From Eledone cirrhosa (Eukaryota), in assembly GCA_964016885.1 (NCBI GenBank), contig OZ024741.1, positions 146,258,001 to 146,322,000 on the forward strand: 64,000 nucleotides of DNA. Reading direction: 5' to 3'. The translations under genes and the position numbers were made by a program. The number at the start of each line of letters is the position of its first letter. Position 1 is the stretch's first letter. The notes under the pieces are model-generated. The model was given only the letters and a program-made list of their open reading frames with translations, was not told the origin of the DNA and searched no databases. Positions 14,139-37,378 of the stretch are shown here, in pieces.

Positions 14139-14256
14139 AACGAAGGAAATGTGGTAAGGAACCAGCTGGACCATAACGCACCAAAGTACTCAATACTTGG
14201 GGTAGTAGAGTGGGTAATAGGAACCAGTAAGACCCCGGGGTCTTACTGGTTCCTAT
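14139..14256 (-). mobile_element. Short fold-back insertion in (TA)n (family 2): 78-nt tail + 20-bp palindrome; probable Penelope-like terminal fragment
   Basis: Tail 14139-14216 is the reverse complement of 36855-36932. Palindrome ataggaaccagtaagacccc|ggggtcttactggttcctat. Confidence 0.7.
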
Positions 14257-15186
14257 ATATATATATATATATATATATATATATAAGTATATATATATAT
14301 GTATATATATATATGTATATATGTATATATATATAAGTATATATATATATGTATATATATATATGTATATATGTATATATATATATGTATATATATCTAT
14401 ATATATATGTATATATATATATGTATATATATATATGTATATATATATATGTATATATATATATGTATATATATATATATATATATATATATGTATATAT
14501 ATATATGTATATATATATATGTATATATATATATATATATATATATATATATATGTATATATATATGTATATATATATGTATATATATATATGTATATAT
14601 ATATATGTATATATATATGTATATATATATATGTATATATATATATGTATATATATATGTATATATATATGTATATATATATATATATATATATATATAT
14701 ATGTATATATATATATGTATATATATATATATATATGTATATATATATATGTATATATATATATATGTATATATATATATATGTATATATATATATATGT
14801 ATATATATATGTATGTATATATATATATATATGTATATATATATGTATATATATATATATATATGTATATATATATATGTATATATATATATATATGTAT
14901 ATATATATATATATGTATATATATATATATATATATGTATATATATATATATGTATATATATATATATATATATATATATATGTATATATATATATACAT
15001 ATATATATATATATATGTATATATATATATATATATGTATATATATATATATATGTATATATATATATATGTATATATATATATATATGTATATATATAT
15101 ATACATATATATATATACATATATATATATATATATACATATATATATATATATACATATATATATATATATATATATATATATAA
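14257..15186. repeat. ~930-bp (TA)n microsatellite punctuated by TG/CA
   Basis: Direct reading; source of the spurious Y/I-rich ORFs. Confidence 0.98.
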
Positions 15187-15279
15187 GTATTAAAGTTTCC
15201 GTTGAAAATTGAAAAAGTGATAGGAGTGAAGAGTGCTCTGTGTAAGTACCAGAGCTAAATTTAATGTATAATAAACAAT

Positions 15280-15365
15280 ACAATATAATTACCTCATTAC
15301 CAGAGGTTTCCCGAATAAGACGAATACGAAAAACGTTCTCATTCGTTCATCGGACAAGGCAATTT
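15280..15365 (-). ncRNA. Hammerhead-ribozyme-like motif (variant core CCGATGA) in pLTR
   Basis: CCGATGA - stem II CGAATGAGA/TCTTATTCG - GAAA - stem III CCTC/GAGG - TA; stem I is weak. Confidence 0.55.
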
Positions 15366-16699
15366 AAAACATAGTGAAATATTTGAAAAATCTCCTCAAG
15401 AAAGGCAAGAGTTTAACGGGCAAAAAACTATACAAATGAAAGTAATGCAAGAGATATATAAAAAAAAAGGAAATATAGTTAGGGTATGTGTATATGTATG
15501 TATATACACTCACCAATGTACATATGTGTGTATGTACAAATCCATGTGTATGGTGAAAATGTGTGCGTAAGTATATATATGAGGACAAGTATATTTGTGT
15601 ATGTGTGACCACAAATACGTATATAATATGAGTTGAAAAAGAAATTGTAAGATAATATAGTTAACACACATCCAGATACAGATATTAAATATATACACAT
15701 ACGAGTATGAAAGCACGCGTATAAACACACACACACACGCGCGATCCCTTATATGCGGAAGATAAAAAGGGAAGAGAGTGTAATAGTAAAGAGAAGTGTC
15801 ATTCTCGATATATGTATAAAAATGAAACAATATATGAGAATGAAAAACATTTTTTTAAATCAAAGAGAAAGTAAGACGGAGGGGTTGTCAATTAACACTA
15901 GAAAAAAGAAAACAAACATTGGTACGCACGTACACACACACACACACATATATATATATATATATATATATATATATATATATATATATATATATATATA
16001 TATATATATAAATATATATACATATAAATATGTACAGACAAAAGCGCATGCATGCGTACATACATACACACGAGGCACGCATATATATATATATATCGCC
16101 ACATGTATATCACACGTACGTACGCGACTATATATATATATACATACACACCCATACATACATATACATATACATATATATATACATACATAAACACATA
16201 CATTCACCCACATACACACACACGTATAAATAAGTATGTAAAAACCATAGATATAAAAACACACATACACACACATATATATACATACGCAGGCACACAT
16301 ACAGAGGCGTTCGTATACATATACAGAACGTATACACACATATGCGCACTCACACGCATAGATACAAATGATAAACCAGCCGTATGAATAAATGAGTACA
16401 AATATAAAGTCGGCTGCGAAACAACAGAATATATCTGGAGTGGAAAACGCAAGTGACCGTGATATCAAGTAGTGAAAGCAAATGGGGAAGTAAAATGTGG
16501 AATGTGAAGATATTAGGTAAGTGAATCAAAAAGTAGGGGGGGGGGGTTCACTGGTGGATGTGAAGTAAAAATAAAAATAAAATTAAAAATAAAGTTAAAA
16601 ATGAAAGTAAATCAGAAAGAGAAGTCTGTAAAGAGGATAATTTAAGGAAAGTGAAGAACAAGAGTTTATGGAGGATAAGTATCTGAAAGTGAGTTAAGT

Positions 16700-17300
16700 T
16701 TATATGAGCTGGAAAGCAAGTGTGATTTCATGTGTGGGCAACTGGTGAAAATTTCGTTTTTGCGTTTAGGCAGGTTTTTGGTGATTTAAGTTTCTATAAA
16801 ATCCAATATGTTTCACTTATGCAGAGTGTGCATCTTCTTGTTCCTCTTGCATATTCTTTAGATTGGTTCAAAACAGACCAATCCAATTTATATTGGATAC
16901 CTTGGTCTTTCAAATCCCATATTCTGCTAGCCAGAGCTGTTGTAAATCTTTTTTCTGGATGTCGGAAAGATGCGACATGTGAGTAATAACGCGTTTTGAA
17001 TTTGTCTTGTGTCATACCCACATATCGTTCGCTGGTGGCTGGTAGGTTGTTGCTGATGGTTGTCACGTTAGCCGCATATACAATGGCTTTGGTGTTGCAT
17101 TTACCTTGTAATGGGCATTCATTTTTTACTCTATAGGAGCAATTTTGATGTCCTCTGGGTGTTTTCTTATTGTTGATATAAGATTTAATAGGGGGACCGC
17201 AGGAGTAGCTAATTTTGACACAGTTTCTATTGAAGATCTTATAGTATCTATGTGTTCAAGGGAAATGTTTATCTAAGGGCTCTAGGAATTTTTTGCCTAC
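16700..17300 (-). pseudogene. Penelope GIY-YIG endonuclease domain
   Basis: IVY...YVG motif pair, R-x3-H, WDLK and C-x2-C-x2-E motifs; RYYKIFNRNCVKISYSC linker at ~17200-17250. Confidence 0.88.
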
Positions 17301-35175: not shown

Positions 35176-36179
35176 TATATATATATATATCATTATCATC
35201 ACCATCATTGTCATCATTTAACAACTACTTTCCCTGCTTGCAAGGGCTGGGTGGGTGTACATGTCAGTACTGAATCAGGGCCACTGACGTTCCAGTTAGG
35301 CTGGGAAGGTCTGTATCCCACTTAAGTACGTTCATCATCAAATTCAGAGAAGTTATCAAATCTTTTGACACCAATTGATTGATAATCGTAACCCGTTGTT
35401 TGGTAAGATTTCTACAACTTGAGGCCCTTTCTAACACCAACTATTTTACAGTGTGTCAGTGTGTACTATATATATATATATATATATTTTTGGCATATTA
35501 TAATCAGTGAGTTTTTGGTTATCATGTTCAGCTCTGCTGATGATCGAATCCAACCGTGACCATCCCCACTGAAAGTTTCGTGAAATAGTCTTTTCAAGAC
35601 TATACAGAGCATGTGTAGTTTTTCCAAATTGAAGGATGAGTATTTTAGACTTTATTTTATCATGAGTTAAGGCTCTATTGATTTTTCCCTGGATTTCACT
35701 AAATTCTGTTGGATGAATCTATATCCTGATTCTTTTTGAATTGAGTTTGAATTATTTTTCCCACATCTTACGTTAACTATTTTCCCATTTTGACGCTATA
35801 GTCACTTATATATTATGAAATACTGTGTGCTTCTTGCTCATAATAATTTTTACACTTTTCATTTATATATATATATAAATAAAGAGAGAGAGAGGGTGGA
35901 GAGTGAGTCATATACATATCCACAAATATAGATAGATATAAAACATGTATATATAAATATATATTATATATTAATGAATAATGAATAACTGAGATTTAAT
36001 TATATCGGTTCAAAGGACAGGAATATTCAGTCCTGCTATATCAATCTCTTCAGAATCTATTAAATAACATTAATATTTACTAACACATGTCCATATGATG
36101 GAAAGAAAACTAGATGAATAAAGGGCAGTTCCGGTAGCAGAGAATTTGCAATTCAAGATGTAAGAAAACCAAGGATAGT

Positions 36180-36545
36180 CATCATCATCATCATTATCAC
36201 CGTTTTACGTCCGTTCTTCCATGCTAACATGGGTTAGACGGGTTGTCCTATGTGGGCAGTGTCTGGTCAGCTGACCATGCCTTGCTCATACAGGAACTGA
36301 TTTTGGCTTGATTTCTACAGCTGGATGCCCTTCCTAACACCAACCGCATTTACAGTGAGTGCTGGGTGCTTTTTTGCCATGACACCTCCACGACCACTTT
36401 GCAGTGGAATGATATGGACCCCAGTCCCTATTATCACATTTCTACAGCTGAGTAAACTGAAGAATGTGAAATAAAGTGTCTTGCTCAAGGAAACAACACA
36501 TCAACCGGTCTGACAATTGAGCTCACAACTAAGCCATGAGCCTCC
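36180..36545 (-). mobile_element. tRNA-derived SINE sharing its 3' ~230 nt with the RTE 3' UTR
   Basis: Head GGAGGCTCATGGCTTAG, CCTTGAGCAAGACACTTTATTTCAC core; 36180-36405 matches 20880-21075 and 25980-26199. Confidence 0.85.
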
Positions 36546-36738
36546 ATATATATATATATATATATATATACTCTTTTACTCTTTTACCTGTTTCAGCCAT
36601 CCGGCTGAGGCCATGCTGGGGCACCGCCCTTATATATATACATATATATATATATGTATATATATATATATATATACTGTATATATATATATATATGTAT
36701 ATATATATATATATATATATATATATATATATATATAT

Positions 36739-36932
36739 ATAGGAAAAAGTATGACCCCGACGGCAGAGCTCAAGCTGTTTCGACGGCTATTTCAGTCCAG
36801 AAATAGCCGTCGCAACGGCTTGAGCTCTGCCGTCGGGGTCATACTTTTTCCTATTACCCACTCTACTACCCTAAGTATTGAGTACTCTGGTGCGTTATGG
36901 TCCATCTGGTTCCTTACCACAATTCCTTCGTT
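36739..36932 (+). mobile_element. Fold-back insertion in (TA)n (family 2, copy 2): ~55-bp arms + 78-nt tail
   Basis: Arms 36739-36793 and 36800-36854 (2 mismatches), loop agtcca; tail homologous to 14139-14216. Confidence 0.75.
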
Positions 36933-36954
36933 ATATATATAAATATATATATAT

Positions 36955-37378
36955 GTAGACGGTGAGTAATATTGTAGAACAATAAAACTATACATAATTC
37001 AGATAAGTAGCACTCAACAGTTAGTAGAACTGCAGTATATATTAAAGAAGAAATTAAAAGATGGTTAAAAAAGTTCAATATATTTTATTATGCGCATTTC
37101 GAAAACAACATCACCCTGGGACAAAAATTGTGTTCTCATCAGATAAAATAAGGTAACATGTTATGAGGCCTAAAAACACTTGTCAACAGGAAAGTGCAAA
37201 ACCTACATATGATATGTAGGTTTTGCACTTTCCTGTTGACAAGTATTTTTAGGCCTCATATCATGTTACCTTATTTTATCTGATGAGACAACGCAATTTT
37301 TGTCCCAGGATGAAGTTGTTTTTGAAATGCGCATAATACAATATATGGAACTTCTTTAACCATCTTTTCATTTCTTCT
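36955..37378 (-). mobile_element. Hammerhead-bearing fold-back insertion in (TA)n (family 1, copy 2)
   Basis: Tail 36955-37045 resembles 29666-29751; arms ~37046-37210 and 37212-37378 with scattered mismatches and a 1-nt loop. Confidence 0.85.
37271..37343 (+). ncRNA. Minimal type I hammerhead ribozyme; mirror copy on the minus strand at ~37080-37150
   Basis: ttattttat-CTGATGA (37280-37286)-stem II-GAAA (37324-37327)-TGCGCA-TA-ataat. Confidence 0.8.

Follow-up and report, generated by a model that had tools for sequence, protein, structure and literature searches.

How an insertion comes to carry a unique tail at one end and an inverted copy of its own sequence at the other is the question raised by a 64,000-nucleotide stretch of the Eledone cirrhosa genome (assembly GCA_964016885.1, contig OZ024741.1, positions 146,258,001 to 146,322,000 of the forward strand), referred to here as the window. 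An initial annotation had recognized five such insertions from three families and had proposed that the 3' end of a cDNA snaps back, is copied to a defined stop site and is then joined to (TA)n. All five insertions were present and share the signature claimed for them: a tail at one end only, and an inverted arm that runs as far as the tail boundary and there meets a microsatellite. Judged by their motifs, they are the ends of three Penelope-like retroelement families of Hydra-clade type. The copies of these families elsewhere in the genome point to an origin other than snap-back: the two arms are probably two separate cDNAs, each primed by one nicked strand of the (TA)n array and joined head to head.

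The rationale for comparing the arms was that a fold-back copies only sequence in the tail-primed cDNA, so that the tail arm must contain everything found in the inverted arm, whereas two separately primed cDNAs are under no such constraint. Exact tail patterns occurred 7,767 times (family 1), 31,926 times (family 2) and 16 times (family 3) in the host genome of 3.0 Gb, and reversed controls gave no hit, which places these numbers far outside chance expectation. Position-ordered samples, picked by tail pattern alone, all on contig C1 and biased to young copies, comprised 95 of the first 100 listed family 1 hits (5 left out), the first 72 family 2 hits (28 of the first 100 left out) and all 16 family 3 hits. 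The hits were mapped onto real long copies, with the last tail base (T) as position 0 and the tail start (E) at approximately -87 to -81 in family 1, -77 in family 2 and -75 in family 3. Thirty loci from an earlier genome search, whose query included the apex and was biased towards one junction, were left out of the counts. The inverted form was the majority, being found at 83 of 95 family 1 and 65 of 72 family 2 tail hits; 12 and 7 hits, respectively, had no adjacent inverted arm.

Arm lengths were compared where the inverted arm started at E, and an asymmetry was scored when it exceeded 10 nt. In family 1 (n = 72), the arm reaching further 5' was the tailless one in 42 copies and the tail-bearing one in 11, while in the other 19 the two lay within 10 nt of each other (42 vs. 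11, binomial p = 2e-5). When only differences over 100 nt were considered, the tailless arm was longer in 31 copies and the tail arm in 5; in L059 the tailless and tail arms reached -1417 and -130, and in L189, -2586 and -295. The corresponding family 2 counts (n = 61) were 14 with a longer tailless arm, 5 with a longer tail arm and 42 within 10 nt. Three family 2 copies (L084, L131 and L211) had zero overlap, the tail arm ending within the tail and sharing nothing with the inverted arm. In family 3, the tailless arm was longer in L157 and the tail arm in the window copy. These arms refute snap-back as a general mechanism. The genomic anatomy demands two cDNAs, and from it we infer the priming itself. 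The features of the five window insertions are as follows.

14140..14216, minus strand: family 2 copy A, tail of 77 nt, 3' end abutting (AT)n
14217..14256, no strand assigned: family 2 copy A, two 20-nt arms forming a perfect 40-nt palindrome
14236/14237: family 2 copy A, apex, at the hammerhead cut predicted for family 2; junctions pile up at that base
14254..15185, no strand assigned: (TA)n array (TRF), target common to family 2 copy A and the family 3 element
15187..15261, minus strand: family 3 (GIY-YIG element), tail of about 75 nt
15262..17306, minus strand: family 3, tail-bearing arm, 5'-truncated
15291-15360: family 3, hammerhead-like motif of the tail-bearing arm
16794..17255, minus strand: family 3, what is left of the C-terminal GIY-YIG endonuclease, an open stretch of 153 aa in which CxxC precedes Glu, no significant Pfam match
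17310..18304, plus strand: family 3, tailless inverted arm that has lost about 240 nt by internal deletion, stopping at the tail boundary and adjoining (AC)n(AT)n
18206-18275: family 3, hammerhead-like motif of the tailless arm
29666..29751, minus strand: family 1 copy A, tail, inner boundary uncertain by several bases
29752..29907, minus strand: family 1 copy A, tail-bearing arm with hammerhead motif
29908..30070, plus strand: family 1 copy A, tailless arm including a 7-nt loop (29908-29914) of element sequence missing from the tail arm
29965-30031: family 1 copy A, hammerhead motif of the tailless arm
36739..36793, minus strand: family 2 copy B, tailless inverted arm of 55 nt
36794..36854, plus strand: family 2 copy B, tail-bearing arm including a 6-nt loop, beginning at the family 2 5'-end hotspot and carrying the 3' half of a hammerhead-like motif
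36855..36931, plus strand: family 2 copy B, tail of 77 nt
36955..37045, minus strand: family 1 copy B, tail
37046..37378, no strand assigned: family 1 copy B, a pair of arms, each about 165 nt, that meet at a single G (37211), the position matching the family 1 5'-end hotspot; hammerhead motif on the tail arm

Tails thus measured 77 nt in family 2, about 75 nt in family 3 and about 80-90 nt in family 1, where the boundary falls in a TA-like stretch and is ambiguous by several bases. Within a copy, the arms were nearly identical: 156/156 (29666) and 155/165 (36955) in family 1, 20/20 (14139) and 53/55 (36739) in family 2, and 654/666 in the non-repetitive outer part of the GIY-YIG element. The two family 1 window copies matched each other at only 194 of 237 positions. 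The initial annotation had described tiny loops of 0-7 nt; these were seen in the four small copies, with loops of 0 nt (14139), 6 nt (36739), 7 nt (29666) and 1 nt (36955), but not for the GIY-YIG element, in which about 750 nt (16557-17306) are unpaired.

A mirror test was made by reading the orientation of the loop on 30 loci per family out of the genome-wide junction matches. The exact junction of copy 29666 occurred 56 times in the genome; among the 30 read, the loop was on the tailless arm in 24, as in the window copy itself, and on the tail arm in 5, while one locus had two tails (24 of 29, p = 5e-4). For the 36739 junction, with 1,838 occurrences, the loop was on the tailless arm in 19 loci and on the tail arm in 9, two being without a full tail (19 of 28, p = 0.09). 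The side of the loop separates the two models. A sharp common arm end with dispersed loop positions, which had been expected to support snap-back, would not have distinguished them; the end was sharp and the loops were clustered.

The fixed end of the inverted arm was borne out by the samples. Of 80 family 1 inverted junctions mapped from the 83 hits, 72 started at E, 4 at T and 4 elsewhere; for family 2 (64 junctions from 65 hits), the numbers were 61, 2 and 1. Random placement of arm ends, which would have spoken against the proposed signature, was therefore not what was seen. Six mapped inverted arms of family 3 started at -72 to -77. The role assigned to this position, that of a defined stop, was not upheld: the full-length copy L107 has its 3' end at E joined to (TA)n without a tail, and junctions with no tail on either side (L266) or with two tails (L251) exist, for which reasons E probably acts as a start site. 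A motif of the form RCTC-hairpin-GAGY lies just after both positions, beginning at -81, -71 and -68 after E and at +9, +7 and +8 after T in families 1, 2 and 3, respectively. The family 1 match after T was found in L039 and L055 and not in L108, family 2 had one additional match at -107, and the motif was absent from 2.35 kb of the family 1 open reading frame (ORF). Furthermore, TA-like bases follow or overlap both E and T and are likely to pair with the nicked target. The TA-like E site has also served as a target: in three family 1 copies (L112, L200 and L043) one and the same other repeat is inserted there.

Pairing would be needed at a snap-back turn. However, 38 of 66 family 1 and 38 of 55 family 2 junctions had no microhomology (26 with inserts and 12 blunt in each family), which argues against such a turn; microhomology was present in only 28 and 17 junctions. 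Some inserts were re-copied junction sequence (L005, L012, L016, L167, L186, L299 and L300). A GC-rich minisatellite of about 230 nt was captured between the two arms of the family 1 junction in L019. The inverted arm of L206 begins at E, covers an entire 3.8-kb unit and extends 100 nt into the preceding one; its span of more than one unit implies a tandem RNA template.

The arms ended preferentially at a few places. Among the 72 family 1 copies, the tail arm ended between -251 and -262 in 21 and the inverted arm in 25 (both arms in 16); among the 61 family 2 copies, the corresponding numbers for -129 to -141 were 39 and 44 (both in 33). The turn-around point, which had been called variable, was clustered at a few fixed positions per family. 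The hotspot sequences, TCATAT in family 1 and TYAGTC in family 2, resemble an initiator, and the hotspots are likely to be the transcription start in the pseudo-long terminal repeat (pLTR). A promoter and start site in the Penelope pLTR are described in the available part of PMC2377424. In family 1, 4,746 arms begin at the hotspot A preceded by a base other than the genomic C; a hand count of the first 100 gave 44 G, 39 T and 17 A. A copied cap would give G at this position, and the counts may hint at one. The possibility that the main 5'-end hotspot is the ribozyme cut was rejected, since the predicted cuts are located 3' of it, by about 125 nt in family 1 and 40 nt in family 2.

A second class of ends did coincide with the predicted cut. 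The subfamily of copy 14139 had junctions near the predicted hammerhead cut at 183 loci, and by hand count among the 49 of these that were listed, both arms lay exactly at the cut in 29, at least one arm was compatible with it in 47 and 4 read through it by 2 nt or more. The tiny loops would then arise because both cDNAs reach the same RNA 5' end, either the start or the predicted cut. They had been regarded as direct evidence for hairpin-primed second-strand synthesis; because inverted arms outreach tail arms and E behaves as a start, they provide no such evidence.

That the hairpins are made anew rather than inherited, as had been proposed, was substantiated. At least five sequence variants share one family 2 junction, the two arms bearing the variant of their own copy, and this matching implies repeated formation of the hairpin. 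The differences from the copy's own partner arm numbered 0-4 in 25 of 30 copies, compared with a mean of 7-10 to other copies; the remaining 5 had indels. Both arms are likely to derive from one RNA or one source locus, and later gene conversion of the arms may also have occurred.

From what was observed, namely the identity of the families, the constant positions of E and T, the unequal arms, the copies without overlap, the hotspots of arm ends and the types of junction, the following course of integration is proposed. The endonuclease would nick both strands of (TA)n, and one 3' end would prime at T and the other at E. The RCTC-hairpin-GAGY motif a few bases past each start would probably position the enzyme, while the TA-like start bases pair with the target. 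Each cDNA would run to the RNA 5' end or stop early. The E-primed cDNA would run ahead and the T-primed cDNA would more often be short, which may reflect a need to displace the E-primed one. A near-perfect palindrome whose loop is tiny would result where both cDNAs arrive at the same end of a probably shared RNA, either the likely transcription start in the pLTR or the cut predicted for the hammerhead. The 3' ends would be joined, probably by end joining or a template jump, giving blunt junctions, 1-6 nt of microhomology, or untemplated or re-copied inserts. A wider and more tentative proposal, for which the chances are slightly below even, is that two-ended priming is the normal integration route of the Hydra clade. 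A protein dimer would make two cDNAs on one RNA from two hairpin-marked sites, both running to the RNA 5' end (capped start or hammerhead cut), and their joining would yield tail, inverted pLTR and palindrome in one step. If so, the pile-up at the cut site would amount to genomic evidence for the in vivo use of ribozyme-cleaved RNA as template.

Several observations weigh against the priming of two cDNAs as set out above. The model does not by itself account for the regular pairing of a T end with an E end, and inverted arms starting at neither were found in 4 of 80 family 1 and 1 of 64 family 2 junctions. Both flanks are (TA)n, so a target-site duplication is unreadable. Poseidon of Anolis (PAc) showed no strand difference in start site in vitro (PMC11167929). 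The asymmetry in family 2 alone was not significant, either by arm length (p = 0.06) or at the same junction (p = 0.09), and the family 1 table was entered by hand, with 13 family 2 rows hand-corrected or added. As for the RNA ends, many of the 20 G cases inspected at the family 1 hotspot are explainable as templated or by microhomology. By hand count, a second family 2 subfamily was weaker at the predicted cut (both arms there in 11 of 50, one-arm read-through in 21 of 50), and 16 of 38 family 1 junctions lay at it, at an A/T-rich site and under a 14-nt gap limit that omits longer read-through. The family 2 ribozyme core is off consensus; moreover, the family 2 5'-end hotspot falls inside loop II, and half the ribozyme would be missing from a transcript begun at that hotspot. 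Folding back of the tail-primed cDNA, copied to a stop at E and joined to (TA)n, could also produce the copies with a longer tail arm (11 of 72 and 5 of 61) or arms within 10 nt (19 and 42), the minority orientation of the same junction (5 of 29 and 9 of 28) and the window copies 14139, 36739 and 15187, with 36955 ambiguous; it would also explain why the arms within a copy are of one subfamily. However, it is unable to make the longer tailless arms of 42 of 72 and 14 of 61 copies or the three pairs of arms that do not overlap, more than half of the junctions lack pairing bases, and E is itself found as a free 3' end. Nor does it account for stopping at E, whereas a hairpin lies downstream of both E and T. 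Snap-back is thus improbable and would explain a minor share of the insertions at most.

Self-priming on an antisense RNA template was proposed for rotifer Penelope elements, and the available part of PMC3846280 interprets palindromes at inverted junctions in this way. Such palindromes are common here, yet the ends cluster at features of the sense RNA, namely the predicted ribozyme cut and the initiator-like hotspot, and self-priming does not predict blunt or insert-bearing junctions, kilobase differences between arms or zero-overlap copies; it is considered highly unlikely. The same low probability is given to a few ancestral hairpin units copied whole, or to arms trimmed by deletion and homogenized by gene conversion after insertion. 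The recurrence of one family 2 junction 1,838 times and of one family 1 junction 56 times, internal arm deletions (L070, L076, L079 and the window family 3 element) and the fact that, within a subfamily, the arms of other copies are often as close as the own partner agree with such a history. On the other hand, the same junction occurs in at least five family 2 variants with self-matched arms (25 of 30) and in both orientations relative to the tail, and most junctions in the position-ordered samples differ from one another. Two independent insertions back to back in one (TA)n array appear least probable of all: pile-ups in TA arrays do occur (window 36631-37476; L086/L087 and L200), but the junctions between arms contain no (TA)n array, the arms match within a copy, and one tail and one tailless end are the rule.

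The identification of the insertions as Penelope-like ends was confirmed in the longer copies. Family 1 tails lead into an 808-aa open frame with reverse transcriptase (RT) and, at the C terminus, a GIY-YIG domain, lying between two pLTRs in L108, where the ORF is 2.4 kb and the repeat unit about 3.7 kb. Pieces of the corresponding frames were read by motif in families 2 and 3. Partial tandems forming pLTRs occur in L107 and L108, and the tails of L146 and L161 continue into element sequence. Family 1 has DKT and RWI in the RT region, and family 3 has RWK, with DKT read from the DNA of L161. The CxCX5C linker, CxxC and CxH are present and CCHH is absent in family 1 and family 2 (L146, L135), while the family 3 remnant in the window retains CxxC and has a mutated linker. 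The Penelope/Hydra assignment rests on these motifs because Pfam gave no significant family for any of the 4 proteins tested. Of 37 homologues, 1 carried PF00078, and the sole named homologue of the family 1 protein was from Argonauta hians. A miniature inverted-repeat or other DNA transposon was rejected as an alternative, the arms running on into RT/GIY-YIG elements, and Naiad was rejected in view of the C-terminal endonuclease and the hammerheads. In L108, helicase frames at 1777-3549 (minus-strand coordinates) adjoin the family 1 tandem; from their motifs we take them to be Helitron-like.

Hammerheads were called by a descriptor scan instead of minimum-energy folding. The descriptor gave 3 hits in the window, all in family 1 arms, and none in each of 20 shuffles. 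The predicted ribozyme of family 3 has a variant core, and that of family 2 has the helices and a core that departs from CUGANGA. The family 2 core is mostly UUGANAA (L146, L128, L127, L135, L317), in which U3-A8 replaces C3-G8, a compensatory change; such U3-A8 variants are presumably able to cleave. An Rfam scan of 12000-40000 returned no hammerhead among the 150 matches listed of 173, and the matches were chance ones below the gathering score, mostly of microRNA models on microsatellites. Minimum-energy folds did not yield the hammerhead core, as expected for minimal helix III motifs; minimal hammerheads are described in the available parts of PMC4209133 and PMC6765202. The ORFs and ribozymes together fix the sense of the RNA, with the tail as its 3' end.

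The elements are new members of a known clade, and their layout is already published. The Hydra clade is defined by DKT, RWK or RWI, CxCX5C, CxxC, CxH and the lack of CCHH (PMC8557442, section 11). The present families agree with it in DKT, RWK or RWI, CxCX5C, CxxC and CxH around Glu/Asn, the absence of CCHH, canonical hammerheads and insertion into (TA)n. The family 1 unit of about 3.7 kb differs from the published 'generally under 3 kb', and placement in the clade was made here from motifs. The standard Penelope layout consists of an inverted, 5'-truncated pLTR and, optionally, a tail on one side, according to the available part of PMC3846280 and the Fig. 2 legend of PMC8557442; the accessible text of the former ascribes junction palindromes to self-priming on an antisense template, and that of the latter ascribes the tail to resolution by the endonuclease. 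As far as these sources could be consulted, the endonuclease-bearing Penelope units share with the present families an inverted 5'-truncated copy near the 5' end, a tail at one end (sometimes both or none), the palindrome at the inverted junction, the pLTR hammerhead and partial tandems. The tails are about 75-90 nt here compared with the published 30-40, and the copy statistics here favour two primed cDNAs. The present analysis adds the counts of arm asymmetry, the copies with zero overlap, the mirror test and the accumulation of arm ends at the cut site.

In L1 the second start is not known to be fixed, nor the arms to overlap more than barely, whereas here the second start is fixed, the arms usually overlap as a long inverted repeat and most copies are of the inverted form. 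The two systems have in common a second priming event and joined cDNAs; in L1 twin priming, a second priming at the target followed by joining of the cDNAs produces a 5' inversion (Ostertag and Kazazian 2001, as summarized in the available part of PMC10760644). PAc nicks and extends both strands in vitro, with two internal start sites that bound the tail (PMC11167929); an AT-rich target and a stem-loop at the starts are further likenesses. It belongs to another clade, the main text of that study does not derive an inverted arm from second-strand cDNA, and no reads ending at the ribozyme cut were reported (PMC11167929). The available parts of PMC3681739 and PMC13282606 hold nothing further on mechanism. 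In the titles, abstract beginnings and passages searched, the inverted arm of Penelope-like elements was nowhere derived from twin priming; Arkhipova 2006, Evgen'ev and Arkhipova 2005, Dalle Nogare 2002 and supplements may do so. The origin of tandem and inverted insertions is a question posed by the field itself (PMC8557442, PMC11167929), and this genome offers tens of thousands of young copies whose junctions exclude fold-back as the main route. Under the two-cDNA model, a conserved hairpin should follow each of the two starts, the tail-primed cDNA should be the shorter one, and synthesis should stop at defined 5' ends of the RNA.

Insertions were often found piled up in one array. Family 2 copy B and family 1 copy B lie 23 nt apart in a single TA array (36631-37476), copy 14139 and the family 3 element share an array of 930 nt, and similar pile-ups were common among the fetched loci. 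A fourth Penelope-like end of the same layout is present at 38058-38563, with the tail from approximately 38058, a minus-strand hammerhead motif near 38364 and an inverted arm at 38479-38563 that matches 38111-38193; sequence resembling it also occurs in loci such as L107 and L161. Inverted 2.5-kb copies of another repeat (20888-23423 and 23704-26199, 89%) flank (TA)n at 23589-23694, and a third related piece (68%) lies at 18822-20451. A 140-nt unit is present in three tandem copies with 99% identity at 4090-4504, short palindromes without TA flanks were found at 5854-5911, 11562-11601, 13946-13988 and 42094-42159, and two short SINE-like repeats in inverted orientation flank a TA array at 37546-37930.

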